DNA from: Acidimicrobiia bacterium
Lineage (GTDB): Bacteria; Actinomycetota; Acidimicrobiia; Spongiisociales; Spongiisociaceae
Direction: 5' to 3'
NCBI GenBank assembly: GCA_963663955.1
Contig: OY760694.1
Coordinates: 2,503,587 to 2,567,586 of the forward strand
DNA length: 64,000 bases
A program made the translations under genes and the position numbers. This document shows, one piece after another, positions 9,754 to 55,437 of the stretch. The notes beneath the pieces were generated by a model. The model worked only from the letters and a program-made list of their open reading frames with translations. It was not told the DNA's origin and made no database searches. The first letter of the stretch is position 1; each line of letters opens with the position of its first letter.

Positions 9754-12147
<2,394 letters not shown>

Positions 12148-12241
12148 CAATACCTGTCCATCCGCTACACAAACCGTTTAACGGAAACCGGGATCCGACC
12201 TTCGGTCGGATCCGTAGGCGACTCATACGACTGTGACGAGA

Positions 12242-14255: not shown

Positions 14256-14321
14256 GTCGGGCGGACCCGTAGGGAGAAGAACGATGTCAACCTCCTCTCA
14301 CCGCCGGTTCGGAACGCTCGA

Positions 14322-16066: not shown

Positions 16067-16518
16067 ACCTTCACCCTGACATCCTAAAGGGAGCACTCTC
16101 CTGATCTAGGACCCGAACCCCTTGTATCCAGGACGAAGTCGAACCCAACAGGGCCCGATACGAACGCACACAGACGCCCGGACTCCCCGACAATGTCGAA
16201 GATGGGACTCCAGAGCGCCTTGAAGTGAATGATGACGACCTGGCCAGGAACACCAAGGGCGGACTGCGGTCGGATCAACCAGATCCGGCGAAGTATCGCT
16301 ACCGAGTCCCGGCGGTCCAAGAATCTTTGATGCATGGCAGAAACAGCGAGGGCCATCCGTCGATTCCCGGCTCGTCGGTCGCTCAGGGCGCGCGCCGGGA
16401 GGCACTAGTCAGAACTTATACCAGACCTAATCCTTGGTACTGAGTAGGTACTCATCTGGCTACCGCTATAACGGAAAACGAAGGGGCTCGCTGACACCCA
16501 CGTTCGCTTGCAGTCACC

Positions 16519-38886: not shown

Positions 38887-39303
38887 TCAGGAAGGCGGGT
38901 AGAGACCCACGTTGGCCGACTCGTCGGTCTGCCAGAACACGTCGGCAATGGCGTTGATCTGGGCGATCAGATCCTCGGCCACGCCCGGATCGGTCGACTT
39001 CTTGGCGTCTCCCGCAGTCTTGATAGCGTTCCAGAACATGCCGTGCAGCTCGGGGAACCTCTCGAGATGGTGTGGCTTGAAAAAGTCCGTCCACAGGACG
39101 GAAAGGTGATGCTTCACCAACTCCGCCTGTGACTCCTTAACCGAGATGCAGCGCGACCGGAAAACCTCGTCATCACTACCGTGGTACTTCTTGGCTGCCT
39201 GGAGTACCGACTCGGCCTCGATGCGGGCTTGGGCAGGGTCGTACACCCCGCAGAACAGATCGCAGTGGGCGTGAGCCACCTTCAACGGCTTGAGAATCCC
39301 CAT
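38887..39303 (-). CDS. sodN: Nickel-containing superoxide dismutase precursor
   Basis: Leader MGILKPLKVAHA followed by the Ni-hook HCDLFCGVYDPAQA at the mature N-terminus. About 138 aa. Confidence 0.85.
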   Translation of the reverse strand: MGILKPLKVAHAHCDLFCGVYDPAQARIEAESVLQAAKKYHGSDDEVFRSRCISVKESQAELVKHHLSVLWTDFFKPHHLERFPELHGMFWNAIKTAGDAKKSTDPGVAEDLIAQINAIADVFWQTDESANVGLYPPS

Positions 39304-39468
39304 CTATGGTCTCCTTCGGGATTAGCTTCGCGTACCGGGTTCAGAATACACTCACCACCGCCCGCCGCAGACGTCGGTCGACGCCTGTCCTAACATCCGC
39401 ACGGAGCCCACACCATCATCGCTGCATCAGCGCCATTCGCCCGGCCCGGAAAACGCTTCGACCGCTTC

Positions 39469-39873
39469 GTGGTGATTGACCACTCGATGACACCCCTCCT
39501 TGCACCGGGCGACCATCTGATCACCCGTCTGCTAAGACCCGGCTTCCTTCCCCTCCGTGGGAACCTGGTGATATACCGCGACGATGACCGCTACCTGATC
39601 AAACGGGTAATCGGTCTCCCGGGGGAAAGCGTCACGATAGACGGTGGGATACTCTTGATCGACGGCCAGACCTTCTCCGAACCGTGGTGGTCCGCGGCCA
39701 CCCGCCCCGACGGGATCTGGACGATTCCGGCAGACTCCTGGTTCGTGTTGGGCGACAATCGCCCCCACTCCCACTCGGATAGCCGCTCAACCGGCCCGGT
39801 TCGAACCGGCGACCTCCACTCTGTCGCCGTCGCCCGTTACCGTCCGATCAAACGAATCCGTCGCCTCCGGTAA
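39469..39873 (+). CDS. sodX: Ni-SOD maturation peptidase (signal peptidase I / S26 family, SodX)
   Basis: S26 fold motifs RVIGLPGESV, WFVLGDNRPHSHSDSR. Adjacent and divergent to sodN, as is typical. Confidence 0.75.
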   Translation: MVIDHSMTPLLAPGDHLITRLLRPGFLPLRGNLVIYRDDDRYLIKRVIGLPGESVTIDGGILLIDGQTFSEPWWSAATRPDGIWTIPADSWFVLGDNRPHSHSDSRSTGPVRTGDLHSVAVARYRPIKRIRRLR

Positions 39874-39916
39874 GCCCCTGACCCCTCACTCAAACGATCA
39901 TCCACTCTCCCGTAGC

Positions 39917-40420
39917 TTGGGGGAAGCGGCAACCGGCTCCGCCTCACCGTTCGCACCTATCACACACGATCGCTATATTGTTACCGTGACAATTGGCAGA
40001 CAGACTTTCCCCGACTCTGACGACGACGTATTTGCCTTCTCCGACGACGAATGGGATTTGGATAATCCGTTCGGGGATTACGATGGGGATGCGTACCCCC
40101 CAGCCGCGGGGAACCACCTTGGGTCCCTCAGTGGCGGCTTCGTCCCGATACTGCTAGTACTGATCTCGTTCGTCGCCCTGATCGGCGCGGCGGCATTCAC
40201 CGTTCGCGACGTACAGGCCGAACAGGCGGTCTCCGGAAGCGGGTTCGTATCGGCGTTAGGGGCATACATTTTCGCCGCCGCCGCCGACACCGGCAACCGG
40301 CGCAGCAAGGAGATGAGAGAGATTCCCGGCCGCATGGGGTTTGCGGTTTTCTTACGGTGGATCGCGCCCTTAGTCGCCCTCGCGGTGGCCATCCTCGCCG
40401 CCCACGGAGCGGCCCTTTGA
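39917..40420 (+). CDS. Hypothetical membrane protein
   Basis: Two hydrophobic segments (GFVPILLVLISFVALIGAAAF and FAVFLRWIAPLVALAVAIL). Acidic N-terminal region. Start uncertain. Confidence 0.3.
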   Translation: MGEAATGSASPFAPITHDRYIVTVTIGRQTFPDSDDDVFAFSDDEWDLDNPFGDYDGDAYPPAAGNHLGSLSGGFVPILLVLISFVALIGAAAFTVRDVQAEQAVSGSGFVSALGAYIFAAAADTGNRRSKEMREIPGRMGFAVFLRWIAPLVALAVAILAAHGAAL

Positions 40421-40438
40421 GGATCTTCTTCGATAGCA

Positions 40439-40448
40439 GGGGGGGGGG
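40439..40448. repeat. Homopolymeric G10 tract in the intergenic region upstream of the VWA operon
   Basis: GGGGGGGGGG at 40439-40448, 42 nt upstream of the start at 40490. Confidence 0.9.
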
Positions 40449-40489
40449 AAGGCCCTTGGAACGAGTCGGCGCCAACAGGTACCGCGGCC

Positions 40490-43400
40490 ATGAGATTCCG
40501 GCGGCATGCTCTCATCCGGCGGAACAGGGTGGGTTTCCGTAAGCGGGTTTGCTCGCATCGAATACTGACCACGGTCACGCTGTGGCTCGTAATCGCGGCG
40601 GCTACGGTCGCGACGCCCTTGGGGGCCTCGGCCCAGACGTCATCAAGCTCAGACCCTGATATCCCGCAAAGCCCCGACTGCCATCCCAGCCAGACCATAA
40701 GGATCCTATTCCTGCTTGACACCTCGGGGAGCTTGCAATGGAACGATCCGGCGGGTAACCGGATCGAAGGAACCATTCGGGCCGTGTCCGACCTGGTAAC
40801 CCGGGCGATCAACGACGGCCCGGAGCAGCGCCGCAGATACGGCGGATGGTCATTGCAGGTGGCGGTCGACACATTCGCCAACGACTACTACCGATCCGGA
40901 GACTGGCGCCCGCTGGTCGGTACCGATGAGGCTCTGCTCACCGGTACCGACCAAATCAGGGATCTAGCCCGGCAGCTTGAGGACACGATACGAGCGGCGG
41001 AACCGTCCGGCTCCCGGACCGACTACCGCAGAGCCTTGGCCGGCGCCGTCGAACGGTTTCGCGAAGGCGGCGGCGGCTCCTGCAACCTGCTGTTCTGGTT
41101 CACCGACGGGGAACACGACACTCAGGGCCGCGCCAGGCTCAACAGTACCGAGCGCCGCCAGATAGACGACATGTGTCGATCGGACGGGGTGGTAGCGGAC
41201 CTCAGACAGTCCGGAATATGGACCAGTGTGATCGAGTTGACCGAGAACCGCGCCCCAACCGCCGTGCTGCCTCGGCTGGTTGGGACCGGTCAGGAGTGCG
41301 ACGGCCTCAACGGGAGCGTCGTGGGACGTGTCATCCCGGTAGCGTCCGCCTCGCAGCTGGTGGACGACATCGAAAGGATCCTGTACGAGGTCTGGCCTCG
41401 CACACCGATCGAATACCATCCTTGCTCCCCCACGCCGGAGCGTCGGTTCGTTCTCGACGAAGACCTTGAAGAGGTCAGGGTGTTCGTCGACCTTACCAAG
41501 GTCGACGAACCCGACGCTGTGGTGCTAAGCCTTCAACCTCCCGGCGGCCGACCGTTTCCGATCTCGTTTCCCGACACTTGGAGGAGAATCTCGAACACAG
41601 GATTGCTCGGCTGGAAGCCCACCAAGTGGCATCGGGAGATCAGGGCGCATCAGCTTGGCCGGCAGCTGTACGGAACGGTCTGGGGCGCCGATCAGGAGTG
41701 GCGTCTGTTCTGTTCCGGCCCCGGCTACGAACGGGCCGAGATCGCCATAGAGAAACTCGAGATAGAGAAAGCGAGGGTGGTGGAGCTGAACCGGACCGCC
41801 GACAATCTGGTGGGGCAGGTGCAACCACCACCGAAAGAGGGGGAAACGGTCCGCATCTCGGCCCGAATCGGCGGTGTTGGTCCCGGTGCCGGACGTAGCC
41901 TTGATCTCCCCGATGAGGACCTTCGGGTCGAGCGCAACGGCAGGTTCACGATCCCCACCGTCAAGGACCGGGTTGAGGAGGCGCTCGGGGAGACCGGAGA
42001 ATGCCAGGCCGAACTTGAGGTCTCGGTCACCAAGTGGGTGACCTATGGCGAAGAGCGCAGCTTCTGGGACATCCCCGGATCGGAGGCCGTACTCGCCGTG
42101 GACGTCTGTCGGGGCCCTCTGCCGGAAGTCTCGATCGCCCTGATCGATGGACAGCCTTCAGGCCCTCTCGAGGTCACCGCCCGCGGCGGCTATCTCGATT
42201 CCCTCCTTACGATCGCGGGAATCGGCACCGATCCTCCGGTGGAACTCGGTCCATTGGTGTGGCGTTGTGAAGTCCCCGCCAATGTAGACGGTTTCCGCTG
42301 CGACAACCTTGCGGTGGACGTGTCCGACCAGCCCGACATCGGAACGGAAGTGGACTTGGAAGTGACCGTCGAAGCAAGCCCCCAAGGCTTGGACCGGCCA
42401 GAGACCCGGATCCTTCCGGTGGCGGGGCTGCTGGTCAAGGGCAAACTCCCCCACCCCGATCGGGTGATGGTCGGCGGCGCTGGAACCGGTGTGGTCCAGG
42501 TAGGCGCCGACGGTGGCCTGCATGACTCCGAGATGGAGATAACCGCCGTCCGACCTGTGGAAGTAAGCGTGTCGGATGGTCCCTGGCGTTGCTACGTGCC
42601 CGCCAATGAGGTCGAGTATTCCTGCAGTCCAGATGTCGTCCTGACCGCGCCGGGAGCTACGCGGTCGATCAACACCCCCCTGTCGCTCACCATCAGGGCT
42701 CGATCCACGGTCGACGGTTCCGCCGAGTGGGTCAGGGACTTCCCGATCAGCAGCCTCGACATACCGGGTGATCTGCCCCGAGAGTTGACCGTAACTGCTC
42801 TGCCCCGTGACCCGGACGAGCCGATCACGCTGAAGGTAGCGGTCGAACCCGGGGCCCAGGCCGCGGTGGTGTCATCGGAATCGGTCGAACCGGTAGAGGC
42901 CGCCCATCCCGAGAAAGATCCGGTCCGGATCGTCGTATCATCCTGGGAAGGCTGGCGATGTGACATCGAAAGAACCCTTCCGGGTGTCGCCACGAACGTC
43001 ACAGAGTGCGACCAACCGCTCCGCATCGAGTGGGAGGGTTCCCACGACTCGGAGATCGGTCTCAACCTCACCTTCGGGATCCGGGGATCGGCGGACGGGG
43101 AAGTATCTCAGTCGGTCACCGCCACCTCCGGACCGTTCGAGATACGAGTCTGGGAACTCTCGGAGTTCATCGCCGCCCTGATCCGCTACCTGGCCGTGCT
43201 CGTCGTAGCTGTGTTAGCGGTTCGCGTGTTAACGGCTTGGTGGCGTCGGCGATGGGCCCCGGCGTCCTCGGCGCAATACTTCACCCTCCGCGGCGACAGC
43301 GGTACGTCGATCGAGGAGTCGACCGGAAGGTCTCAGATCGAACCGTCAGAGTATGAGATGGCACCCGGCCTCGACTCCAGAGCGTCCTCGGCGAACCTGG

Positions 43401-43825
43401 GCGAGATTCAGCTCCGCATGTTGTGGTGGCCGTTGCTGCTCGGGGGGCGCCGACGGATCGCCGCGTTCTATCCGGACGGCGCCTGCACATCCGGTGCCGG
43501 AAGTAGCAAGCAGCGGCTGGGCGAAGGCAGGTACGGCGTGGTCGGATCCTCTCTACGGGACGGTTGGGCCTTGGGACGGGCATCGGATGACGGATGGACA
43601 TTGGTGGTATGGGATCTCCCTTCCGACCAGGATGAGGCCCAAGCCAGGCTCGACGAGGCGATCAACGAGGCCGCCGCCCGGTGGGACTCCGTTTCTCCCC
43701 GGAAGACACCATCGCCAAGTTCGGCCCAGGATTCCCCCGAAGTTCCCCAACGTGAACCGCCCGGGGAAGAAGGTTCTTCTGACTGGGATTCCGATCTCGA
43801 CGACGATCCCTTCGTAACCAAATGA
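40490..43825 (+). CDS. Exported VWA-domain protein, 1111 aa, single C-terminal-proximal TM anchor and cytoplasmic tail
   Basis: N-terminal signal/TM segment. VWA MIDAS motif IRILFLLDTSGSL ... LLFWFTDGEHD. Three ~115-aa repeats each with W-R-C...C. TM helix FIAALIRYLAVLVVAVLAVRVL. ~200-aa tail ending in an acidic patch. Confidence 0.7.
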   Translation: MRFRRHALIRRNRVGFRKRVCSHRILTTVTLWLVIAAATVATPLGASAQTSSSSDPDIPQSPDCHPSQTIRILFLLDTSGSLQWNDPAGNRIEGTIRAVSDLVTRAINDGPEQRRRYGGWSLQVAVDTFANDYYRSGDWRPLVGTDEALLTGTDQIRDLARQLEDTIRAAEPSGSRTDYRRALAGAVERFREGGGGSCNLLFWFTDGEHDTQGRARLNSTERRQIDDMCRSDGVVADLRQSGIWTSVIELTENRAPTAVLPRLVGTGQECDGLNGSVVGRVIPVASASQLVDDIERILYEVWPRTPIEYHPCSPTPERRFVLDEDLEEVRVFVDLTKVDEPDAVVLSLQPPGGRPFPISFPDTWRRISNTGLLGWKPTKWHREIRAHQLGRQLYGTVWGADQEWRLFCSGPGYERAEIAIEKLEIEKARVVELNRTADNLVGQVQPPPKEGETVRISARIGGVGPGAGRSLDLPDEDLRVERNGRFTIPTVKDRVEEALGETGECQAELEVSVTKWVTYGEERSFWDIPGSEAVLAVDVCRGPLPEVSIALIDGQPSGPLEVTARGGYLDSLLTIAGIGTDPPVELGPLVWRCEVPANVDGFRCDNLAVDVSDQPDIGTEVDLEVTVEASPQGLDRPETRILPVAGLLVKGKLPHPDRVMVGGAGTGVVQVGADGGLHDSEMEITAVRPVEVSVSDGPWRCYVPANEVEYSCSPDVVLTAPGATRSINTPLSLTIRARSTVDGSAEWVRDFPISSLDIPGDLPRELTVTALPRDPDEPITLKVAVEPGAQAAVVSSESVEPVEAAHPEKDPVRIVVSSWEGWRCDIERTLPGVATNVTECDQPLRIEWEGSHDSEIGLNLTFGIRGSADGEVSQSVTATSGPFEIRVWELSEFIAALIRYLAVLVVAVLAVRVLTAWWRRRWAPASSAQYFTLRGDSGTSIEESTGRSQIEPSEYEMAPGLDSRASSANLGEIQLRMLWWPLLLGGRRRIAAFYPDGACTSGAGSSKQRLGEGRYGVVGSSLRDGWALGRASDDGWTLVVWDLPSDQDEAQARLDEAINEAAARWDSVSPRKTPSPSSAQDSPEVPQREPPGEEGSSDWDSDLDDDPFVTK

Positions 43826-43854
43826 GATGAAACCATCGACTAGGAGATGAACAA

Positions 43855-44961
43855 ATGCTGAGACCCGTCATCATGATCGGTTGCGGAGGATCCGGTTCCA
43901 AAGCGGTTCGCTATGTCCGCGACGCGGTGGAGCGCAAGCTGCGTCACGCCGGGGTCAAGGGCGGCATTCCCGATGCGTGGTCATTCATAGGGCTCGACAC
44001 CCTCACCGTGCAGGAGGACGCGACGGAAATACCGACCCTTCCGGCGACGGACTTCCTGTCGGTGTCGCTCGGCCTCAACAAGTACAGCGATGTTCACGAC
44101 GGACTGATGGTCGAACGCCCGGTTACTTCCTCCACCTATCCGAGCCTGGTGGGTTGGCGCCCCAACCCTGGTGACGTGAACGTGCCGCTGCTCGACGGGG
44201 CCGGAAAGTTCCGGGCAGTGGGGCGGTTGGTCGGGCTGCTGGCGTCGACGAACGAACTTCAAAAACGGATAGGCCGCGCCTTCATGGCCGCCAAGTCGGG
44301 GGGGCCGGAACTGGGTCGTATCTCCGAAGCCTTGGGTGTCCCCTCAAGCTTGGGCTCGGCGACGCCCTCCCCGCTCGTGGTGATCTGTGCTTCGGTGGCG
44401 GGGGGCACCGGCGCCGGGATCGCCCTTGATGTGGTGGATATGGTCCGTAGAGTCGACGATCTCGGGGGATTCCCGGTCCTGGTGCTGTTCACCGCCGACA
44501 TCTTCGACTTCGGCGTCGACGACGCCATGGCGGCCAATTCGCTCGGCCTGGTTTCGGAGACCATGGCCTCCTATTGGGGCAAGCAAGGCGACAACTTCTT
44601 TCCGTCGTTGGTTCCCGAGCCGGGGTCCGGCCCGCACGCCCTGTTTTTCGTCGGCCGACACAGCCTCAAAGGTGGCGATCTGGGCGACACCGTGTCGGTG
44701 TATCGGGCGGTGGGCGAAGCGATGTCCACCTGGGTCACCGAGCCGAGGGTGCAGGAACAGATCCACAACTTCATCACCGTCAACTGGGCGAGTCAGGCCA
44801 AGAATCGGATGGGGGGATATCCCTTCGGAGTGGAATATCAACCGGGTGCGGTGTCCTCATTCGGCGCGGCCACCGTCTCGATGGGGCGTGACCGCTTCGA
44901 GCGCTGGGCCACCGATCTGCTGTCCCCACGAGACCCTCCGACGACTCGCCGGCGGGCATAA
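43855..44961 (+). CDS. Divergent FtsZ/tubulin-superfamily GTPase domain protein (FtsZl-1-like); probably the N-terminal part of a larger protein
   Basis: T1 loop VIMIGCGGSGSKAV (cf. FtsZ IKVIGVGGGGGNAV). T4 signature LVVICASVAGGTGAGIALDVVDMV (cf. FtsZ ITAGMGGGTGTGAAPVIAE). The frame ends 3' of a C4 run at 44924-44927, where the next ORF continues. Confidence 0.65.
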   Translation: MLRPVIMIGCGGSGSKAVRYVRDAVERKLRHAGVKGGIPDAWSFIGLDTLTVQEDATEIPTLPATDFLSVSLGLNKYSDVHDGLMVERPVTSSTYPSLVGWRPNPGDVNVPLLDGAGKFRAVGRLVGLLASTNELQKRIGRAFMAAKSGGPELGRISEALGVPSSLGSATPSPLVVICASVAGGTGAGIALDVVDMVRRVDDLGGFPVLVLFTADIFDFGVDDAMAANSLGLVSETMASYWGKQGDNFFPSLVPEPGSGPHALFFVGRHSLKGGDLGDTVSVYRAVGEAMSTWVTEPRVQEQIHNFITVNWASQAKNRMGGYPFGVEYQPGAVSSFGAATVSMGRDRFERWATDLLSPRDPPTTRRRA

Positions 44962-47050
44962 CCGGTACAAGGCGACGGTAGGAGACGATGTCGATCTGGC
45001 CGAACCGGAATTGATCGAAGTACTGGCCGAGCAGCGGGCCGACAGTATCTACGAAGGTCTCCGGACCGCGCCCGACCACTTCGCGTCGGATCGCGATGGC
45101 AAGGACGAGAGAACCACAATCCTCGCCGAACTCAAGAGACCGTTCTCCGGTCACGCCGTTTCCGGGACCGACTGGTACCGCAGGCTGAAACGCCAGGTCC
45201 GGACCATGAGCAAGGAAAGGAAGAAACGTGCCGAGAACATCGATGTTCCCTCGTGGGGCGCCGAAATGGTACGGGCGATTTGCTCCGCCTCGTCCGAGGT
45301 AGCGGCGGATACCTCTTTGGAAGTTGCCCGGAATGCGATCCTGCTGGCCCGGGAGAAGGCCGAGCAACAGGCGGAGGTTTTGCGACAGAAAGCCGCCCAG
45401 GACCGGGATCCGGCGAAGAAATACCAGCAGAAAGGGCTCAACGACCTGACGGGCCGCAAAGGCAAACTGCGCCTTGACGATGCTCCGGTAACCGACGCTT
45501 TCAAGACGGTGGCTAGCGGCTTGACTTTTGAATGGCGCAGTGTACGCCGCGAGCGGACGGCCGAGGTATTGGAGGCAGCAGCCCGGGAAGTGCTACCGAC
45601 CGCGGCCCGTGCGCTCGGTGCGGCGGCGTCCCAGGCGAACGGCGCCCTCAAAGAGGACGAGGTAACGACTTGGCCGACGATCGGCTCCGGCATACCGAAG
45701 GACTACCTTCCCGCCACCGTGGAGTTTCCGCTTGAAGATCACAACGCTTGGCCGGACCAACTCAAACAACTTTGCAAGGAGGCGGTTCGCCGTGATGCGA
45801 GCGCTACCCGTCCGGTGGACGCGGTCCGTCGGGTTCTGGTAGGCGGAGACAGGGACGGAACTCTCCCGCCGCTGCTGAACCCCTCCGATCCTCAGGCTTC
45901 ATGGGCGCCCGGGGTGTCGCTTCGCCTGTCGTGCGACGCCCGCTCCGGGGCAATCAAGAAGCGTGTGGACGAGTGGACCGGCAGTCCGGGATCGCCGTTC
46001 TCCGACTTCTTTCGGGAAGGCCTGAGGGCCTACCTGTCGGAGAATAACCCGGACACCGATGAGCAACAGGTGGACCATGTGGACCGAATCAAGTCCTTCC
46101 GGCATAGCCTTGAGCAAGCGCTGGTCCGCTCCCAACCGCTGGTTCAGATCAACCCGGGTCTCCATCGGGTGGTCCACCAAAGCGATGTGGCAGTCGACCG
46201 GCTGTGCGCCGCCTTCCCCTTCCAGGAAGGACATCCCGCCGCCGAAGTGGCCCGTGAGGTCGTTGGAAAGGACAACTATCGGGTAACCGACACCGACACT
46301 TCTTCCGTGCTGGTCTCTCACTACATGAGTTCGCCGGTTCACCCGATGGTCGTCAAGTCCTTTACCGAGCCGGTATCCCGATCTGTAGCGAGTTTCGGCG
46401 CCGACGAGGGCCGATTTCGATCGTCTTTCTGGCTGTTTCGTCGGGCGAGAACCTTGCCGGGTTTCACGCCCATGGCCCCCGACATGCTCAAAGCCATGAT
46501 TCGAGGGTTTGCAGTCGGCCGGCTGTGTGGCTATCTGAACCTTGGCCCGTCGCGGCCGAGGATCAGTTCGCCGGAAGGCCCGGTAACCTTCCCCGGTCCG
46601 ATGCTGTCCTCGGTAGAGCAGGACGACATGCTCGCGGCCTTGATCGAGAACTTCTCCCTCTGCTATGCGCTGGTAGACGCCCAAAAGCTGCTGTGTTTCA
46701 AGGCCTACGAGCTCCTGTACGAACTCGGTGAGCACAGGAACCCTGTGCACGACGATCTCCGCCGCCTCCTCGCTACCGGGAACACCCTCCGCCATACTGT
46801 CGATGAGCCGAAATGCCGAGGCACCGATCCCGAAGCCCGCGAGAAGACCGCCGTCCTTTACCTGGACCTCAACATCAAACGTTTTGACAGGCTGGCGTCC
46901 GCAGATACGTTCACGGGCGAGGAATACCGGCATGAGACCGGACACGCCAACCCGAACGTTCCGAGCATGGAAATCGCCGCGATTGCCGCGGAATGCCATC
47001 AGGAGGTCCGCCAAGCCGTAGAGGAAGTGAGCGCCGGAGGGGTGGCATGA
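44942..47050 (+). CDS. Large helical protein, probably continuous with the tubulin-like domain via a frameshift (combined ~1060 aa)
   Basis: No ATG/GTG/TTG start in frame near 44940-45000. Protein-like sequence begins ...HETLRRLAGGHNRYKATVGDDVDLAEPELIEVLAEQ. Long charged, helical, coiled-coil-like stretches. Stop overlaps the next start (ATGA at 47047). Confidence 0.45.
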   Translation, partial: RLAGGHNRYKATVGDDVDLAEPELIEVLAEQRADSIYEGLRTAPDHFASDRDGKDERTTILAELKRPFSGHAVSGTDWYRRLKRQVRTMSKERKKRAENIDVPSWGAEMVRAICSASSEVAADTSLEVARNAILLAREKAEQQAEVLRQKAAQDRDPAKKYQQKGLNDLTGRKGKLRLDDAPVTDAFKTVASGLTFEWRSVRRERTAEVLEAAAREVLPTAARALGAAASQANGALKEDEVTTWPTIGSGIPKDYLPATVEFPLEDHNAWPDQLKQLCKEAVRRDASATRPVDAVRRVLVGGDRDGTLPPLLNPSDPQASWAPGVSLRLSCDARSGAIKKRVDEWTGSPGSPFSDFFREGLRAYLSENNPDTDEQQVDHVDRIKSFRHSLEQALVRSQPLVQINPGLHRVVHQSDVAVDRLCAAFPFQEGHPAAEVAREVVGKDNYRVTDTDTSSVLVSHYMSSPVHPMVVKSFTEPVSRSVASFGADEGRFRSSFWLFRRARTLPGFTPMAPDMLKAMIRGFAVGRLCGYLNLGPSRPRISSPEGPVTFPGPMLSSVEQDDMLAALIENFSLCYALVDAQKLLCFKAYELLYELGEHRNPVHDDLRRLLATGNTLRHTVDEPKCRGTDPEAREKTAVLYLDLNIKRFDRLASADTFTGEEYRHETGHANPNVPSMEIAAIAAECHQEVRQAVEEVSAGGVA

Positions 47051-49662
47051 GCGAGTCGCTGACGGTCTGCGTGGTTCCCGAGGACTATCGAGCCGAAGCT
47101 TCCGACCTATTCACCTCTTGGACCCAAGCAGGGTTGATTGGAGGCGTCGTCCTGTGCTCGCAGAGCGACCCCGAGGCCGATTGTCACTTCTCCGACGACC
47201 TGGAATGGAAATCGGGGAGGCTGTGGAAGGTGCTTGGGCGAGCTACTTACGAAGCGGTGACGGTCGCCGTGCTACGCCCCGACGGTCCCTCCGACAACGA
47301 GGAGAAGGTGGATTGGGAGCACCGACTCGCCGAGGATCTCAGCAAACCGTTCGAGGGAAGCAAGGTGAGGCTTCGGCGAATCACTGTAGGCGTCGCCAAC
47401 CCGGAGATGCCGACCGGGGACCGCGCATTCTCTCCACAATGGGATGCTCACCTGCTCCACGACCTGAGCATGGTCGGCCATGTCGAGGCTGTCCGTTCGC
47501 CGGTCGGCGCCGAGGACCGCGCCGGTGTATGTATGGTGACCGCTCTCCTGGCGGGTGGCGGATGGGCGTTCACCAACCAGGTATGGAAGGTGTCGGACCG
47601 ACCGGTGGGGAACACCAAACCCTTCCGCATTGTGCGGCCACAGATCAGGATTCTCTACGGCGGGGATCCCCGGATCCGGGTCGCCGCCGGAACTATACCC
47701 ATCACCCCGCCTTGGCCCCGTCCCAAAGGCACCGAGACCATCCGGGTAGGTCCGGACATCGAAGTTCCCCGTGACCTGGGAATATCGCTCGCCTCTCGGT
47801 GCGAGTTCCGCTTGCGACAGGCGAGGACCGGAGTCGAGCCGGAAGTGTCGTTTACCGGCAAGATGCGCACAGCGGTTCGGATACTCGGCAAACCCCTCAC
47901 GTCGCCGCGGCCGCCCGATCCGGTCGAACGGGCCCTGGATCGTCTCAACGCCATGGATGCCGGCCTATCCGGACACCCTCGGCAAGCGGAATCCCCCACC
48001 GAGGACCGCGCCATGCTTCTGAAACGAATCAGAAGATCGGGGATGCCCGACCTCGCGCTGGGCAGAGTAGGAGACCCCGAGCCGTGGCGACGGATGCGTC
48101 GTGTGCTGTACGGCTTGGTGGACGCATCTGTGCCCGGGGAGGATGTTCGCATGCCTTATCACCCGCAGGGGGCTGATCCGAGCCTGCTGCCGGTGTGGTC
48201 GGATCCCCACATGATCGCGCCTCCGCCCGATGCCGAGGCGTTCGATCTCGACGGAGACTTGCCGGACGAACTCGGGACCGATCGAATTGAAGCGATCGAC
48301 GTCGCCAACTGCCGGACCGCTCATCACCGCATCACCGGCGGCGATTCCAACTCACCCGCATCGGACACGGAGGAACGACAGGACGACGGAGAAATGGCGG
48401 ATCGGTGGCTTTCGTGGCGGGAACGGTGGAGATGGACGCCGTTGTGGACCCTTGCCGACCGGCTCGCGGGATCTCTCGAGGGCGCCCACAGGGCCTTCGC
48501 GCAATATTCGCAGCGGGCCCGTTCGGATTCCGAGCACCGGGCCGCGGTCCACGCCCGCCGCAAACTCCGTCGAACCGGGTGGACGTTGACAATAGCGGCG
48601 CTGCTGGCCGGACTGGCGGTCGCGGAACGTCATACCGGCTTGGCAGGCGATTGGTTGCAGTTCGTGATCGGCCCTCCGGCCGGGTCGTACTTCGACATTA
48701 TTGCCTACGCGGCCCTCGGCGCCTTTGGTGTAGGTGTCATGGGCTCGCTAGCCCGCCGAGTGGTGGTCGCGACCCTCGCCTTCGAGAAGGCGGAACGATC
48801 ACGTGAAAGCCACAGCAACGCTGCCCGCCACTACGCCTCCGAACTGGCGCGCTTGCACACCGCGGCGGCGGAGTTCCACGATCACCAGAAGGTGATCCGC
48901 ACCATGCTCCACAAGCCGTTCGGCCCCCTGACCGAGAGCCCGGATGTGGGACCCCAACGCCGGTTGATCCCCGAACATTGCGTCCCGGCTTCGATAGTCA
49001 TCGCCACCAGCGAGGCCGATCCCGCCAAGCTGGCGGATGTCCGAAAGGAAATAGCGCAGGGCGTAATCAACCGTGGATGGCTGCTCGATGCCCACTCCAA
49101 GGCGTTAGCGCTCTGGCGACCCTCATTCGAGCGGCAGGTGACCACCGACTTCGATCCGCCCGATGCGGACAACAGCCCACCGGACGCCGAGTTTCTCCAT
49201 GATCCCGCCGGGGGCGGCGCCGTGCCCTTTCCGAGACAGCACTTCACCGACACGGTGGCCGCCGACAGCGCTCTGCGCCGCGCCCTTCGGATAGAGTTCC
49301 CGCTCTCCGTGACCGAGGAAGGGTTCGACGCCCTTCGAATTCTCGGCCTGGTACAGGTGGAACACGGTCCGCAGATGCCGGATACATCAGCCGAAGAGTT
49401 TCTCCGGATAGACGAGCCGGGGGACCAAGACTGGTTCAGCCAGGAGATACTGGACAAGGCGGCCGGACTGAAGCGCCGCCACACCAGGCTGGAAGGTCCG
49501 GAAAAGCTGATAGAACTCCCCGACGGGGAGGAGCGCGACGAGATGATCATGGCCAACTGGCTGATCCCCATGTCTGATCCGATCGAGCCCCGCCATCTGG
49601 CCGGTTGGCGCTCGGTAACCGATGCGGCGATTGTCAGCCAGGGGAGTTCCCAATATGCGTAG
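47047..49662 (+). CDS. Large membrane-associated protein (hypothetical, ~870 aa)
   Basis: Start MSESLTV overlaps the upstream stop. Central pair of TM helices (WTLTIAALLAGLAVA and YFDIIAYAALGAFGVGVMGSLA). No known catalytic motif. Confidence 0.45.
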   Translation: MSESLTVCVVPEDYRAEASDLFTSWTQAGLIGGVVLCSQSDPEADCHFSDDLEWKSGRLWKVLGRATYEAVTVAVLRPDGPSDNEEKVDWEHRLAEDLSKPFEGSKVRLRRITVGVANPEMPTGDRAFSPQWDAHLLHDLSMVGHVEAVRSPVGAEDRAGVCMVTALLAGGGWAFTNQVWKVSDRPVGNTKPFRIVRPQIRILYGGDPRIRVAAGTIPITPPWPRPKGTETIRVGPDIEVPRDLGISLASRCEFRLRQARTGVEPEVSFTGKMRTAVRILGKPLTSPRPPDPVERALDRLNAMDAGLSGHPRQAESPTEDRAMLLKRIRRSGMPDLALGRVGDPEPWRRMRRVLYGLVDASVPGEDVRMPYHPQGADPSLLPVWSDPHMIAPPPDAEAFDLDGDLPDELGTDRIEAIDVANCRTAHHRITGGDSNSPASDTEERQDDGEMADRWLSWRERWRWTPLWTLADRLAGSLEGAHRAFAQYSQRARSDSEHRAAVHARRKLRRTGWTLTIAALLAGLAVAERHTGLAGDWLQFVIGPPAGSYFDIIAYAALGAFGVGVMGSLARRVVVATLAFEKAERSRESHSNAARHYASELARLHTAAAEFHDHQKVIRTMLHKPFGPLTESPDVGPQRRLIPEHCVPASIVIATSEADPAKLADVRKEIAQGVINRGWLLDAHSKALALWRPSFERQVTTDFDPPDADNSPPDAEFLHDPAGGGAVPFPRQHFTDTVAADSALRRALRIEFPLSVTEEGFDALRILGLVQVEHGPQMPDTSAEEFLRIDEPGDQDWFSQEILDKAAGLKRRHTRLEGPEKLIELPDGEERDEMIMANWLIPMSDPIEPRHLAGWRSVTDAAIVSQGSSQYA

Positions 49663-50608
49663 GAGTCCCGGCCCGGTCGGATCCCGACGGATTTGGCCCG
49701 CGGTTGTGGCTGTGTTGATCTGTGCAGCGACCCCGGTTACCGCCCAACCACTATCACAACCCGACGACCTCTTGGATCGCGGCTACGGCCTCTGGGTGTC
49801 GGTTGTCGTCAACGTGGATGGCGCCTCCGGCGGTCACGCCGAGTTCGTGGCTACACGCGAAGCAGTGACGGCCATAGCCGACCATTTCGATGTCTCCCGA
49901 GCAGAAGCCTGCCGACGCATCGTCTATCCCGATTCGGAGTCGGAGAGACCATACTTCCTTAACCCACGCCTGTGGACTGAACGTACCTCGCACCAGGGGG
50001 TAGATCAATGCCGCTACACCTTCGGATATCCCGAAGGAACCGACCTCTCCTCCTTCTCTATTACCTCGACGGGGCGGATCCGCTATTCCGAGCGGTTTGA
50101 CTCTCCGAACCGGAGCACCCTGTTCGAATCGGAGCAGACAGCGGGCACGGTCTGGGATGAGGAGGTTGTCGAGTTGTTGATCAGTGAGTACGGGCTCCCT
50201 AGGCAGGGACCCTTGGAGGTGGTAAGGATTAGGTTTCCACATCGGCCCGACGGCCCCGAGTCACGCAACGCCGAGTATGCCGTGGGTAACGATCTAATCT
50301 GGCATTACAGCCCTCTCGGTACGATCATCGTAGACTCCTTGGAAGGTTCCGCCACCCCGACCACGACCGCGCCGACCACCTCAATAACCCCTACTACCAC
50401 TACAACCATACCGACAACCACAACCACAACCACCCGCCCGCTGTCTACGACCACTACCACAACACCGGTCGCTGAAGAACCGCCGCCCGAGCCGGAACCG
50501 TTTCCGTGGCTGTTGCTGCTCCTAGCCATGCTGGGCGGCTTCGCATCCGGCTGGATAGTGGGAGAAACAACATCGAAGCGCAAAGCAGAACGTGCTTCGG
50601 AGGGTTAG
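49655..50608 (+). CDS. Secreted protein with Thr/Pro-rich linker and C-terminal TM anchor (hypothetical)
   Basis: Signal peptide MRRSPGPVGSRRIWPAVVAVLICAATPVTAQP. Linker PTTTAPTTSITPTTTTTIPTTTTTTTRPLSTTTTTTP. C-terminal anchor PWLLLLLAMLGGFASGWIV. Confidence 0.45.
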   Translation: MRRSPGPVGSRRIWPAVVAVLICAATPVTAQPLSQPDDLLDRGYGLWVSVVVNVDGASGGHAEFVATREAVTAIADHFDVSRAEACRRIVYPDSESERPYFLNPRLWTERTSHQGVDQCRYTFGYPEGTDLSSFSITSTGRIRYSERFDSPNRSTLFESEQTAGTVWDEEVVELLISEYGLPRQGPLEVVRIRFPHRPDGPESRNAEYAVGNDLIWHYSPLGTIIVDSLEGSATPTTTAPTTSITPTTTTTIPTTTTTTTRPLSTTTTTTPVAEEPPPEPEPFPWLLLLLAMLGGFASGWIVGETTSKRKAERASEG

Positions 50609-50793
50609 GTCGAGAACGCATCTCCTGAATCCCGCCTGTCCGACCCATCGGTGCAAACCGAACTGCACACGGGTTCTCGGATGAATGTCAACGGATCCGT
50701 CGGCTTCTGTAGCCGCTAATCGGGCGATTCGGCGGCCTTACACCTATTAGGGTCGTTGCATTCGGACCATGTTTTCTGAGACACTTCACCTAT

Positions 50794-52011
50794 ATGTCTA
50801 TGTCGCGCAAATCCCTAGCCATCCTGACTATCTGGCTTCTCATGGCCGTTGCCTGTGGAAGCGAAGATACCGTCCCGTCTTCGACCGGCACTCCGAGCGA
50901 AGAGGGAACGGTCACGACCACAGCACCCGCCACCACCGGTGCGGGAACCAGCCCGGAACCGGATCCGGAAACCAGCACGTCGGCGGCGGATGATCCGAAC
51001 ACGGAAACGTCGGACCCGGAGCCGAACCAAACCGAGACACCCGTCTCCGAAACCACTGTCGTTGACCAGCCACCACCGCCGGACGACGCTCCGACCACCA
51101 CCATCTACTCGGGCCCGGTTTCGCCGATCACCGGCCTCCCGGTCCAGGACCCGGAGCTCCTCAACCGGAATGTTCTCGCAGTCAAAGTAGACAACCATCC
51201 GGCCGCCCGACCGCAATCGGGGATCGAGCAAGCCGAGGCCGTCTACGAGGTGATGGTCGAAGGGGGACTAACCAGGTTCATCGCATTGTTCCACCATTCA
51301 GACTCGGACTGGGTAGGACCGATGCGCTCGGCTCGACCCACCGACTGGACGCTGCTACAACCACTCAGCGGGGTCATGCTGATCAGCGGCGCCCAGCCGT
51401 GGATCACCCGACGGATAACCAACAACAACGTGCCTCTGATCGGGGACTCCGGCCCTCCGCTAACCGCCAGATGGGGACAGCGCGTAGCGCCGCACAACCT
51501 GTACGTCGACACCTACCAGGGCCGACGGGTGGTGGACGAACGCGGTATCGACCGGCCTCCGCCTCCGGCGCTATTCAAGCGAGGTCCCCTTAACAGTCCC
51601 GAAGGTGCGACCGCCGGCTACATCTTCTTCGATTGGTCATCCGTGGTGGACGTGTCATGGCTCTGGAACGGCGAGCGATACGTCAGGCTGGCCGCCGAAG
51701 AACCCCACGAGTGGCGGTCCCGTGAAGGTGAGCAGACCGACCAGATATCAGCGGATGTACTGGTAGTCCTGATGGCCGAGGGCTACACGGCTTGCCCTCA
51801 GGGGGAAGGTTCCTGCGTGCCGGCTTGGGACACGGTGGGCGAGAACCGAGCCATCGTGTTCGCGGAAGGAAGCTACGTCGAGGGTAACTGGCGCCGCGAC
51901 CGGGCCGCTGACTGGTTCGTGATCACCGACCAATCCGGTGAAGAGATCACCGTACCTGCCGGGAGACCCTGGATAATTATCTACCCCGATACGGAAGACG
52001 TGACCTGGTAA
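50794..52011 (+). CDS. DUF3048 (YerB-like) lipoprotein
   Basis: Lipobox LLMAVACGS. Thr/Pro/Glu-rich linker. LAVKVDNHPAARPQSGIEQAEAVYEVMVEGGLTRFIALFH resembles the YerB/DUF3048 core. Confidence 0.55.
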   Translation: MSMSRKSLAILTIWLLMAVACGSEDTVPSSTGTPSEEGTVTTTAPATTGAGTSPEPDPETSTSAADDPNTETSDPEPNQTETPVSETTVVDQPPPPDDAPTTTIYSGPVSPITGLPVQDPELLNRNVLAVKVDNHPAARPQSGIEQAEAVYEVMVEGGLTRFIALFHHSDSDWVGPMRSARPTDWTLLQPLSGVMLISGAQPWITRRITNNNVPLIGDSGPPLTARWGQRVAPHNLYVDTYQGRRVVDERGIDRPPPPALFKRGPLNSPEGATAGYIFFDWSSVVDVSWLWNGERYVRLAAEEPHEWRSREGEQTDQISADVLVVLMAEGYTACPQGEGSCVPAWDTVGENRAIVFAEGSYVEGNWRRDRAADWFVITDQSGEEITVPAGRPWIIIYPDTEDVTW

Positions 52012-52021
52012 AGGGGTTGAA

Positions 52022-53431
52022 GTGTCGGGACCGGTTGAATCCATCGCCAAGGAGGTCCGAGCAGGCACCCGCACCGCCCGGGAAGTTGTCAACGAGTATA
52101 TCGAGATTGCCCGCGACCGGAACCGTCACCTCAACGCCTTCATCGAACTCGACGCCGAAGGGGCGCTACGGCAGGCGGAGTTGGTCGATCGCGGGCCCCG
52201 GACCGGTCGGCTGGCGGGCGTTCCGATCGCCCTCAAGGATCTGATCGACCACGCCGGTCGCATCACCACCGCCGGTTCCGCCTTCTACCGTTTCGAACCC
52301 ACGGTCTCCGCTACGGTGGTTGACCGGTTGCGGGATGCCGGCGCCGTTATCTTGGGCCGGACCGGGCTTCATGAGTTCGCCTTCGGTTTCTCCTCCGAAA
52401 ACCCCTGGTACGGGCCGGTGAGAAACCCCTGGGACCTCGCTCTGTCACCGGGAGGCTCCTCAGGCGGTTCGGCGGCGGCGGTAGCGGCCGGAATGGTACC
52501 GGCCGCCCTAGGGACCGACACCGGCGGATCGGTCCGCGTGCCTGCCGCCCTGTGCGGGATAGTCGGACTCAAGGTAACCCACGGACGCATTCCCCTCACC
52601 GGGGTCTTCCCTCTGGCCGGCTCTCTCGACACGGTAGGTCCACTGGCCTTGACGACCGGTGACATCCGCCTGCTCTACGAGACCATGAAGGGATTCGACC
52701 GGGGAGATCCCTGGTCGGTCCCCGCAGCCCCGTCTAATCCACACGTCCCCGATGTTGGTCGCCTTCGGGTGGGGGTACCGCTCCGATGGCTCGATCGAGT
52801 GGAGACTTCCAGCGCAACGAGGAGAAGTTTCGATGCGTTTTGCGATCGGCTCAGGGATCTCGATGTCAGCGTCGATCCGGTGACACGTCCCGCCCTGGCG
52901 CCCGAACCCATCCTCTTTACCCTGGTCGGAACGGAGGCCGCCGAGGTCCATAGGAAGTGGTTCTCGGACCACACCAAGACTTACGGACCGGACGTCCGTG
53001 AACGCTTGGCTCAAGCCATGGATACCACCGCCGCCGAATACCTGGAGGCCGTTCGGTGGCGGGCCGCCATGATTCAGGCGGCGCGGGAACTGTTCGCCCG
53101 ATACGACCTGCTCCTTGTCCCAACCGTGGGGGATCCCGGAAAGAAGATCGGGGTTGACACCATCGACATCGATGGAACCCCGGCCTTCTACCGGTTGGTG
53201 CTGAGCGGTTATACCGCCTTGGTCAACGTATTGGGTTGCCCGGCGATGTCCCTGCCGGTTGCCGACGAAGGAAAGCCTCCCCCGTCGGTGCAGATCATCG
53301 GCCCATGGTGGAGTGAAGAACTTCTTCTCGGGGTGGGCGCCGCGCTGGAACGGTCGGGGCTCGTCGCTTCGGGGAAACCGCCGGTACCGTCCGGCTCGAT
53401 TGGAATACCCGAACAAGGACCGAGAGGTTAG
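52022..53431 (+). CDS. Amidase (amidase-signature family, GatA-like)
   Basis: GGSSGGSAAAVAAG amidase signature with Ser-cisSer-Lys context. GTG start. Confidence 0.8.
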   Translation: MSGPVESIAKEVRAGTRTAREVVNEYIEIARDRNRHLNAFIELDAEGALRQAELVDRGPRTGRLAGVPIALKDLIDHAGRITTAGSAFYRFEPTVSATVVDRLRDAGAVILGRTGLHEFAFGFSSENPWYGPVRNPWDLALSPGGSSGGSAAAVAAGMVPAALGTDTGGSVRVPAALCGIVGLKVTHGRIPLTGVFPLAGSLDTVGPLALTTGDIRLLYETMKGFDRGDPWSVPAAPSNPHVPDVGRLRVGVPLRWLDRVETSSATRRSFDAFCDRLRDLDVSVDPVTRPALAPEPILFTLVGTEAAEVHRKWFSDHTKTYGPDVRERLAQAMDTTAAEYLEAVRWRAAMIQAARELFARYDLLLVPTVGDPGKKIGVDTIDIDGTPAFYRLVLSGYTALVNVLGCPAMSLPVADEGKPPPSVQIIGPWWSEELLLGVGAALERSGLVASGKPPVPSGSIGIPEQGPRG

Positions 53432-53532: not shown

Positions 53533-55437
53533 ATGGAAAGTGAGACCCACACCACAAACTCCAAGGGCCCACAACCTGTGACCCTGGAGTCGAACGGAAA
53601 CATTAAAACCGTCAACCAGGATCGGATGGTGATCCGCTTCGCCGGCGACTCGGGCGACGGTATGCAGTTGGCCGGTAACCGGTTTACGGATGCAGCCGCC
53701 AACTTCGGGAACGACCTGTCCACCCTCCCCACATTTCCCGCTGAGATACGGGCGCCTGCAGGCACCCTTCCCGGAGTTTCCTCCTTCCAGCTGCAGATAG
53801 CCGACTGGGACATCCTTACCCCCGGCGACCGGCCCGGGGTGCTAGTTGCCATGAACCCCGCCGCTCTAAAGGTTCACCTCAAGGATCTGCGCGAGGACGG
53901 GATCCTGATCATCAACGAAGAAGCCTTCGACGAGCGTAACCTCTATAAGGCCGGTTTCGAGAAAAACCCCCTCGACGACGACACCCTGCTCCGCTACAAC
54001 GTGCACAAGGTACCCATGGAGACCCTTACCAAGGCAGCTGTGAAGGGTTCGGGGGTGAGTGGTCGGGCGGTGCTCCGATCCAAGAACTTTCTGGCTCTGG
54101 GTCTGCTCCTGTGGATGTTCGGACGCGATACCAAGGTCACGGCCGAATGGGTGAAGAAGAAGTTCGGACGTATCGAGCCGGTCATGAACGCCAACCTCGC
54201 GGCGCTGAAAGCCGGATACAACTACGGAATAACCACCGAGAGCTTCGCTCATCAGATCGAAGTAAAGCCGGCTTCGCTCCCCCCCGGCACCTACACCAAC
54301 GTGAACGGCAACACAGCCCTCTCGTGGGGGCTGATAGCCGCATCGCAACTGTCGGGTCTTCCGCTTTTCTATGCCTCCTACCCCATCACACCGGCCTCGG
54401 AAATCCTCCACGAATTGGTGCGCCACCGTAACTTCGGCGCCAAGACCTTCCAGGCGGAAGATGAGATCGCCGCCGCCGGAGCGGCGCTCGGAGCGGCTTT
54501 TGCCGGGTGCTTGTCGATTACCGGAACCAGTGGCCCCGGCCTCTCTCTCAAGGGGGAAACGATCAGCCTGGCAATGATCGCCGAGCTGCCGCTGATCATC
54601 GTCGACGTGCAGCGCGGGGGACCTTCTACCGGCCTTCCCACCAAGCCGGAACAGTCTGACCTGTTCCTGGCCGCATGGGGACGGCACGGCGAATCGCCTC
54701 TCCCGGTGGTGGCCGCCTCATCGGCATCCGACGCCTTCGAGGTAGCAATCGAAGCCGCCCGCATTGCTGTCAAGTACATGACCCCGGTCATCCTTCTCTC
54801 CGACGGTTACATTGCTACCGGTTCTGAACCGTGGAAACTGCCGGATGTCGAAACCCTCCCCCCTATCGACGTGCCCTACGCTACCGGGCCGAACACGCAG
54901 GATCGGTTCCTGCCCTACGTGCGGGATCTGAAGACAATGGCCCGAAGCTGGGCGATACCCGGCATGCCGGGGCTGGAACACCGCATCGGGGGATTGGAGA
55001 AGGAGGAAGCCACCGGAGACGTCTCCTACGACCCCGCCAACCATCAGCTAATGACGGACATCAGGGCCTGGAAGGTAGCGAACATAGCGAACGACATTCC
55101 CGAGATCGAAGTGGATGACCCCGACGGAGCGGACCTGCTGGTGCTCAGTTGGGGATCGACCTCCGCGGCGGTGAGGGCCGGGGTGGGGAACGCTCGCAGA
55201 AACGGCGCCAAGGTCGCCTATGGCCGGATCCGGCACCTGTGTCCTTTCCCGCCCAACATGCCCACCCTGCTAAGCAGCTACGAGCATGTTCTGGTCCCCG
55301 AGTTGAACAACGGACAGCTATCCCGGCTGATCAAGGCCGAGTTCGTGAGGCCCGTCGTTTCCTACAACAAGGTGGCCGGAGTCCCGTTCACATCAGGCGA
55401 GATACACGGGAAGATAATGGAATTGGTGGCGCCATGA
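53533..55437 (+). CDS. korA: 2-oxoglutarate/2-oxoacid:ferredoxin oxidoreductase subunit alpha
   Basis: 634-aa KorA-type fused alpha/gamma subunit (FAGDSGDGMQLAG..., ITGTSGPGLSLK...). Stop overlaps korB start (ATGA). Confidence 0.85.
   Translation: MESETHTTNSKGPQPVTLESNGNIKTVNQDRMVIRFAGDSGDGMQLAGNRFTDAAANFGNDLSTLPTFPAEIRAPAGTLPGVSSFQLQIADWDILTPGDRPGVLVAMNPAALKVHLKDLREDGILIINEEAFDERNLYKAGFEKNPLDDDTLLRYNVHKVPMETLTKAAVKGSGVSGRAVLRSKNFLALGLLLWMFGRDTKVTAEWVKKKFGRIEPVMNANLAALKAGYNYGITTESFAHQIEVKPASLPPGTYTNVNGNTALSWGLIAASQLSGLPLFYASYPITPASEILHELVRHRNFGAKTFQAEDEIAAAGAALGAAFAGCLSITGTSGPGLSLKGETISLAMIAELPLIIVDVQRGGPSTGLPTKPEQSDLFLAAWGRHGESPLPVVAASSASDAFEVAIEAARIAVKYMTPVILLSDGYIATGSEPWKLPDVETLPPIDVPYATGPNTQDRFLPYVRDLKTMARSWAIPGMPGLEHRIGGLEKEEATGDVSYDPANHQLMTDIRAWKVANIANDIPEIEVDDPDGADLLVLSWGSTSAAVRAGVGNARRNGAKVAYGRIRHLCPFPPNMPTLLSSYEHVLVPELNNGQLSRLIKAEFVRPVVSYNKVAGVPFTSGEIHGKIMELVAP

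Follow-up and report, generated by a model that had tools for sequence, protein, structure and literature searches.

A one-base insertion in a short C run splits an FtsZl1 (Tubulin_2) gene of an Acidimicrobiia bacterium and has probably inactivated it recently

Within a stretch of 64,000 nt from an Acidimicrobiia bacterium (contig OY760694.1, positions 2,503,587-2,567,586; referred to as the window, whose own positions serve as coordinates throughout), a gene of the tubulin-like FtsZl1/Tubulin_2 family is divided between two reading frames at a run of four Cs. The best reading of our data is that this gene, which belongs to a known type of vWA-FtsZl1 operon, was probably inactivated by a real and recent insertion of one C. 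That a frameshift at this C4 run splits a tubulin-like protein of ~1060 aa had been proposed in a sequence-only reading of the window. The proposal was confirmed to the base, because the allele of a sister genome is intact, encodes a protein of 1064 aa (P0122), and differs by one C at the run (CCC). The interrupted gene consists of the following parts.

43855-44925, plus strand: 5' part of the FtsZl1/Tubulin_2 gene in frame 1, native residues 1-357, predicted GTPase domain (Pfam PF13809, conserved loops)
44924-44927, plus strand: C4 run, the frameshift site, with one C more than the intact sister allele (C3; pairwise DNA alignment)
44926-44961, plus strand: out-of-frame tail PRDPPTTRRRA followed by TAA at 44959-44961 (translation)
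44927-47050, plus strand: native residues 358-1064 and stop of FtsZl1, a large and mostly helical C-terminal region in the +1 frame (frame 2)
45011-47050, plus strand: open reading frame (ORF) of 679 aa from TTG 45011 (P0001; gene callers), starting at native residue 386

The ORF at 43855-44961, whose ATG is preceded by an AGGAG Shine-Dalgarno sequence, encodes 368 aa and has the C-terminus ...ATDLLSPRDPPTTRRRA (also given as ...RFERWATDLLSPRDPPTTRRRA). The open +1 frame extends from 44387 to 47050 and translates from 44927 onward as CCPHETLRRLAGGHNRYKATVGDD... (or HETLRRLAGGHNRYKATVGDD...), and the four Cs sit in the run TGTCCCCACG. On a codon-usage plot trained on the genes of the window, the coding signal moved from frame 1 to frame 2 between ~44898 and 44967. 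In a tblastn search of the window with the intact sister protein, the match broke exactly at residues 357/358, with the two parts in frames 1 and 2, respectively. The earlier description of a tubulin-like frame that ends at 44961 and of a protein that continues in the +1 frame was thus accurate, and the native part resumes at 44927. The tail PRDPPTTRRRA had no counterpart in any homologue in the alignment. Runs of at least four Cs occur eight times in the FtsZl1 gene and runs of at least four Gs 14 times, none of them special.

One detail of the sequence-only reading, that the second frame contains no in-frame start for ~50 codons, needs correction. TTG 45011 is in frame with the C-terminal part, lies 28 codons past 44927 and 50 nt past the premature stop, and is the start used by the gene callers. 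Its protein call (P0001) starts with MIEVLAEQ and matches the window at 100% identity. No Shine-Dalgarno sequence was found within 5-10 nt upstream of this TTG. Just past the premature stop, AGGAG is followed after 3 nt by ATG 44988, which opens an ORF of only 8 codons in the third frame; as this is not the frame of the C-terminal part, the arrangement is probably fortuitous.

The top match among the species representatives of the Genome Taxonomy Database (GTDB) was 57% identical, and a close relative was found instead through the 90%-identity cluster of the two fragments of the window. P0122 is the single further member of this cluster and originates from a circular contig of 4,016,103 bp (ERZ25069711 ctg17310_46x_c; 46x coverage). 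The sister locus (L085) is syntenic with window positions 33969-57026 at 97-98% identity. Between window positions 43855-47050 and L085 positions 10001-13195, the identity is 98.65%, with 43 substitutions, one gap and no other indel, and the C-terminal part is 97.7% identical to residues 358-1064 of P0122. The single gap is the C in question (sister TGT-CCCACGAG, window TGTCCCCACGAG; CCC versus CCCC), and the sister protein reads ...ATDLLSHETLRRLAGGH... (also given as ...ATDLLSHETLRRLAGGHNRYK...) across the junction. Judged from this alignment, one C was inserted into a run of CCC (+1C), and the two parts natively join as ...ATDLLS|HETLRR.... The join LLSP|HETL of the sequence-only reading therefore contained one residue too many; according to the sister allele, it is LLS|HETL, without the Pro.

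The wider family agrees with a single chain. The joined 1064-aa sequence retrieved 221 homologues, of which more than 100 were full-length matches at E = 0 with a query coverage of 97-100%, far exceeding what chance would give. Figures on homologues refer to the 119 of these 221 that were listed, the window's own fragment excluded. Two separate proteins in the relatives, the outcome that the sequence-only reading had set against a split gene, were not what this comparison gave: 117 of the 119 are single polypeptides of 1066-1130 aa that cover 97-100% of the joined query. The best listed homologues, the sister aside, are 57-62% identical to it, and all full-length homologues carry a precomputed PF13809 match. 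The C-terminal part aligns with the last 700 residues of all homologues. Across the junction, 39 homologues align without gaps and share the pattern GRDRFERWAxDL[LF][AS]RETLxxLxxGHxR, to which the window contributes ...RFERWATDLLS (frame 1) and (H)ETLRRLAGGHNRY (frame 2).

Since the CGA codon (Arg) of frame 1 matches the Arg of all 39 homologues in this first alignment, a deletion of two nucleotides (GA) in CGAGAGACC, which would give LLSPRETL, was considered as another origin of the frame change. It was excluded by the sister allele, with its C3/C4 difference and its His, and by the spacing of the motif. The distance from the W to the R/K/H position is six residues in 72 of 72 homologues that could be scored, the pattern being unable to score the other 47 of the 119, and this distance fits LLS|H. 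The homologue P0069 likewise has His at the R/K/H position.

Genomic loci were scanned with one genome per species, and 46 related loci of Acidimicrobiia were obtained, most of them in metagenome-assembled genomes (MAGs) of sponge or marine origin. The tblastn matches to the N- and C-terminal parts were all in one frame in 42 of the 46. A frame change at the position found in the window occurred in none of the 46 loci, and no relative has two genes there. Frame changes elsewhere were detected in the orthologues of L034 and L040 and in an extra paralogue of L033, and L047 has two copies in different frames. The breaks lie at ~11631 in L034, at ~10977-11078 in L040 and at ~2752-2774 in L033, where the second, tandem paralogue is affected. 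L034 is a MAG submitted as a chromosome, and the L040 locus is on a MAG contig of ~6x coverage. It seems that the FtsZl1 family has been duplicated and broken repeatedly, or that these MAGs contain indel errors. L003 (61% identity, contig labelled 16x), which is among the closest orthologue loci apart from the sister, has an intact FtsZl1 gene with flanking genes that were called in pieces. The upstream calls at 5955-8996 comprise 500 + 266 aa, and the downstream calls at 14096-16670, which follow two intervening gene calls, comprise 253 + 284 + 304 aa. The vWA gene and the third gene of the operon described below thus look fragmented in L003.

A programmed +1 (or -2) frameshift, or a phase-variable switch, could in principle set the ratio of a GTPase-only product to the full-length protein, and a programmed shift was one of the three causes that the sequence-only reading had offered. 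In its favor, a C run marks the point of the frame change, and no more than 12 codons separate it from the 0-frame stop. The site is not conserved, however, as the sister at 98.65% identity and all other relatives are in frame there, and the frame breaks in the three other MAGs are at unrelated positions. The shift site CUG UCC CCA CGA has no adjacent stop, and neither a stop or hungry codon of the prfB type nor an upstream Shine-Dalgarno sequence was found. The 100 nt downstream showed no unusual RNA structure (z = 0.69; 151 of 200 shuffled sequences folded at least as well). The known +1 frameshift of prfB (release factor 2) resembles the window gene in its product frame, which is +1 with respect to the start, and in having a 0-frame stop close by. 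The window gene differs from it in lacking a conserved site, an in-frame stop at the shift codon and a Shine-Dalgarno stimulator, and in that the close sister allele is in frame. Tracts that support transcriptional slippage or phase variation comprise ~7 or more nucleotides, and a C4 run is far shorter. Phase-variable tracts are long homopolymers or short repeats that frequently change in length, and here the only variation is C4 versus C3. We regard a programmed or phase-variable switch as extremely improbable.

The N-terminal ORF (43855-44961) matched Pfam Tubulin_2 (PF13809) with E = 4.8e-31 and 108.7 bits (cut-off 27) over profile positions 1-344 of 356. The loops G9-C10-G11-G12-S13-G14 (GCGGSG) and G183-G184-T185-G186-A187-G188 (GGTGAG) are invariant in 32 aligned sequences. 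In a Foldseek search of the Protein Data Bank (PDB) with an AlphaFold2 (AF2) model of the joined protein, the best match was CetZ2 (4b45_A; E = 7.6e-5, TM-score of 0.49 when normalized to the target), with FtsZ and tubulin chains ranking next. The matches span ~340-393 alignment columns on targets of ~290-446 residues, and we assume that they belong to the N-terminal domain. Residues 358-1064 had no Pfam match. In the AF2 model, this region contains long helices at residues 437-460, 464-485, 488-532, 543-578 and 580-598, and the Foldseek search of the PDB returned no significant solved relative of the C-terminal 700 residues. Dynamin and IniA were rejected as relatives of this fold (E > 0.2, TM-scores of at most 0.16).

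Tubulin_2 corresponds to FtsZl1 (FtsZ-like 1) of Makarova and Koonin (2010; PMC2875224), and the two names are equated in PMC9871819. FtsZl1 is the branch that has diverged most within the FtsZ-tubulin superfamily, and it typically occurs in operons with a vWA-domain protein; its role in membrane remodelling is a prediction, which a reviewer of that paper contested (PMC2875224). The family's C-terminal extension is described as having coiled coil. The window gene shares with the family the PF13809 match, both glycine-rich loops, the FtsZ/CetZ-like fold of the N-terminal ~360 residues, and a C-terminal region that is long, mostly helical and without relation to FtsZ_C or Tubulin_C, and it falls into an actinobacterial clade. 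The genomic setting is shared as well, with an adjoining vWA gene (metal ion-dependent adhesion site (MIDAS), signal peptide and transmembrane (TM) segment) and lineage-specific partners with predicted membrane segments. What differs is that the window copy is broken by a one-base insertion. In the family paper, the Sulfolobus FtsZl1 gene SSO1376 is described as "rather recently inactivated" by a transposon after the GTP-binding loop (authors' response, PMC2875224). The window would be another case of recent FtsZl1 inactivation, by a point frameshift in contrast to the transposon in SSO1376. By analogy with SSO1376, this suggests that FtsZl1 may be dispensable and recurrently lost, which is consistent with the breaks in L033, L034 and L040.

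The AF2 model, built for the joined protein with 31 homologues, shows a single body with a mean predicted local distance difference test (pLDDT) score of 89.2 and a predicted TM-score (pTM) of 0.80. In this model, helix 345-375 is interrupted midway, at residues 357/358, so that the break would not coincide with a domain boundary; the restart at TTG, which corresponds to residue 386, falls within helix 383-403. Residues 358-385 would be absent from both the 368-aa and the 679-aa product. They comprise the second half of a long connecting helix and the conserved ETLxxLxxGH motif and include the invariant G367 and the near-invariant L364 and H368.

We propose that the change from CCC to CCCC at 44924-44927 would cause ribosomes to leave the native frame after Ser357, to add 11 unrelated residues and to stop at 44961, giving a 368-aa product with the FtsZ-like GTPase domain only. 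The remaining 707 codons would be intact in the +1 frame, where they lack a proper start and could at best yield a 679-aa fragment from the weak TTG 45011. Residues 358-385, and with them the single-chain architecture of the relatives, would thus be missing from every possible product. The most likely outcome is a loss of function, which would make the gene a nascent pseudogene. As is expected of a recent pseudogene, the frame is broken relative to an intact close allele, and conserved residues would be lost from every possible product.

The gene carries no trace of subsequent decay. All invariant columns of the 31 aligned homologues are kept in the window (63 in the N-terminal and 37 in the C-terminal part). 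Compared with the sister, the rate of non-synonymous substitutions (dN) is 0.010 in both halves, and its ratio to the rate of synonymous substitutions (dS) is 0.42, with 19 synonymous and 24 non-synonymous differences. Thirteen amino-acid differences could be polarised, of which four are derived in the window lineage and nine in the sister lineage. No secondary lesions were found in FtsZl1, and neither dN/dS nor the polarised changes nor the invariant columns gave a signal of relaxed selection. As no later decay is visible, the event was either very recent or not real, and nothing speaks for a long-established pseudogene.

The same intactness could mean that the lesion is real and the function is kept, with two working polypeptides or with a low level of +1 slippage that supplies some full-length protein. 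For such a reading speak the intact state of both halves and of the three partner genes, with no excess of derived changes, the presence of a TTG 50 nt past the stop, and the context U-CCC-CA, which as judged from the sequence permits 2/3 re-pairing in the +1 frame. In the slippage variant, tRNA-Ser would move from UCC to CCC before CCA, a codon that we assume to be rare in this G+C-rich genome. Recency explains the intactness equally well, however. The cut falls mid-helix in a confidently modelled single body (pTM 0.80), a two-piece version would do without G367, L364 and H368, no Shine-Dalgarno sequence is suitably spaced from TTG 45011, and no relative has two genes at this point. We therefore consider retained function very unlikely. 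The specific version in which the C4 allele is a natural, still-functional split or leaky variant, with a GTPase domain and a C-terminal fragment acting in trans or with a trickle of slipped full-length protein, is to be regarded as slightly less probable again. If it were true, the strain pair would serve as a natural experiment on whether the domains can be separated in a cytoskeletal family that is still uncharacterised.

Whether the extra C is present in the organism's DNA is the other question on which the preferred reading, a recent inactivating mutation, depends. A sequencing or consensus error would mean that the organism has CCC and an intact 1064-aa gene, with the extra C introduced in the reads or during polishing. 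The indel is a ±1 change in a homopolymer, and such changes are a typical class of long-read error; contig names like ctg17310_46x_c in the related assemblies presumably come from a long-read metagenome assembler. Both gene halves are perfectly kept, and the FtsZl1 frame is also broken in the assemblies L034, L040 and L033. Accurate platforms do not systematically miscall homopolymers as short as 3-4 bases. A Logan contig assembled with a de Bruijn graph (ERR3887494_19068; 23,123 bp) is 100% identical to window positions 39011-53050 over all 14,040 nt and contains the C4 run as well as the gene calls of 368 + 679 aa. This independent k-mer assembly has 0 mismatches to the window in 14 kb and shares the extra C, so that the lesion is unlikely to have been created by a single assembler or polisher. 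Such a long error-free de Bruijn contig would imply that the reads were accurate and that C4 was the majority path.

Coding indels in the 23 kb shared by window and sister have lengths divisible by three in all but two cases, and the two assemblies are therefore not full of random indels. The exceptions are the C4/C3 difference in FtsZl1 and an ABC-transporter ATPase (window 37733; L085 ~3767). In the latter, the sister is one C short in a CCC run, a mirror image of the FtsZl1 case, and its gene is split into pieces of 240 + 82 aa at the H-loop (IIVSSH); the window copy is intact. Two such frameshifts could reflect relaxed selection in these bacteria or an imperfect homopolymer consensus.

Several of these observations weigh against a real inactivating mutation. 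Two single-C frameshifts in ~23 kb correspond to a rate that an imperfect consensus could also produce. ERR3887494 may be the same read set as that of the source contig of 4,140,741 bp, which would leave room for a systematic read error. The undecayed halves would be expected of an artefact, or of a gene that still functions, just as much as of a recent event, and the FtsZl1 dN/dS of 0.42 is inside the range of its neighbours (0.03-0.47), with no positive sign of relaxed selection. Taking both sides together, we consider a sequence error unlikely. Of the three causes that had been offered, a real mutation thus gives the best account, the programmed shift is not supported, and a sequencing error is disfavored by the independent, identical assembly.

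Read as a real mutation, the case is an ordinary recent frameshift in a known family and involves no new mechanism. It resembles other pseudogenes that arise by ±1 changes in short homopolymers in its one-base insertion in CCC, its stop 12 codons on, its otherwise undecayed gene and the intact allele of a close relative; nothing sets it apart from this class. A recent one-base inactivation in a family described in 2010 has little consequence for biology at large. In the annotation, the calls of 368 and 679 aa should be combined into a single FtsZl1 gene, marked as frameshifted. FtsZl1 seems to be dispensable and broken repeatedly in Acidimicrobiia MAGs, and the C3/C4 sister strains offer a clean natural pair for studying the function of the vWA-FtsZl1 operon. 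The high-confidence model of the 1064-aa protein may help in the study of the uncharacterised FtsZl1 family.

The broken gene is the second of four in an operon, and its three partner genes are all intact.

40490-43825, plus strand: gene 1, vWA protein of 1111 aa (VWA_2, DTSGS MIDAS, hydropathy)
47047-49662, plus strand: gene 3, 871 aa, single TM segment predicted at 551-569; start codon ATG overlapping the stop of FtsZl1 (ATGA)
49655-50608, plus strand: gene 4, 317 aa, with signal peptide, C-terminal TM segment and Thr/Pro-rich repeat

According to motif and hydropathy scans, the gene 1 protein has an N-terminal signal or TM segment, carries DTSGS at residue 77 and contains a TM segment at ~890-919. 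Its match to Pfam VWA_2 is a weak profile match (E = 2.7e-4, 22 bits, below the gathering cut-off of 27 bits). An orthologue of gene 1 is located upstream of FtsZl1 in 45 of the 46 related loci, and the order vWA, FtsZl1 and a gene of ~870-1080 aa is kept in most relatives. Gene 3 had no Pfam match. Compared with the sister, dN/dS is 0.24 for gene 1 (1111 versus 1112 aa) and 0.15 for gene 3 (871 aa in both). A homologue of gene 4 was found in only one of the related loci, the closest (L007). Its ACAACC-type repeat (50360-50420) has 30 nt fewer and 6 nt extra in the window relative to the sister, both in frame, giving proteins of 317 versus 325 aa; the exported protein has a rapidly evolving linker here. 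None of the OmpA, protein kinase or P-loop GTPase partners was found in this version of the operon by Pfam, motif and hydropathy scans. The four operon proteins had no matches in PADLOC and NCBIfam, and hence there is no evidence of a catalogued defence system.

Elsewhere in the window, a decayed remnant of a class-1 DISARM system is located on the minus strand at 3954-9671. DrmD is represented by profile positions 475-1036 of 1040 in the ORF 6901-8793, most of its N-terminal half being gone. Upstream of it, a weak trace of helicase motifs extends over 8547-9671, where the coding frame switches at ~8900 and ~9300. DrmMI is split between the ORFs 4910-7795 (profile positions 202-701 of 1347) and 3954-4880 (1084-1331 of 1347), with an internal deletion of ~380 residues. 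As this deletion is too large for a base-calling error, real decay does occur in the window, which speaks in favor of a real mutation in FtsZl1. On the plus strand, an IS3-like transposase fragment (HTH_21 and partial rve; 10076-10828) adjoins an IS30-like one (HTH_38 and rve; 10740-12140), and their position next to the truncated helicase end suggests that insertion sequences disrupted the DISARM island.

In the codon-usage plot of the whole window, other same-strand frame switches were confined to this DISARM and insertion-sequence region. Apparent overlaps at 36.2-38.1 kb and 53.5-56.4 kb were checked as candidate switches and proved to be normal adjacent genes. The genes for the alpha and beta subunits of a 2-oxoacid:ferredoxin oxidoreductase at 53533-56435 differ from those of the sister with a dS of 0.17-0.21 and a dN/dS of 0.03-0.06, whereas dS is 0.02-0.08 in the adjoining genes. 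This jump suggests an import by recombination or a boundary between segments of different history.

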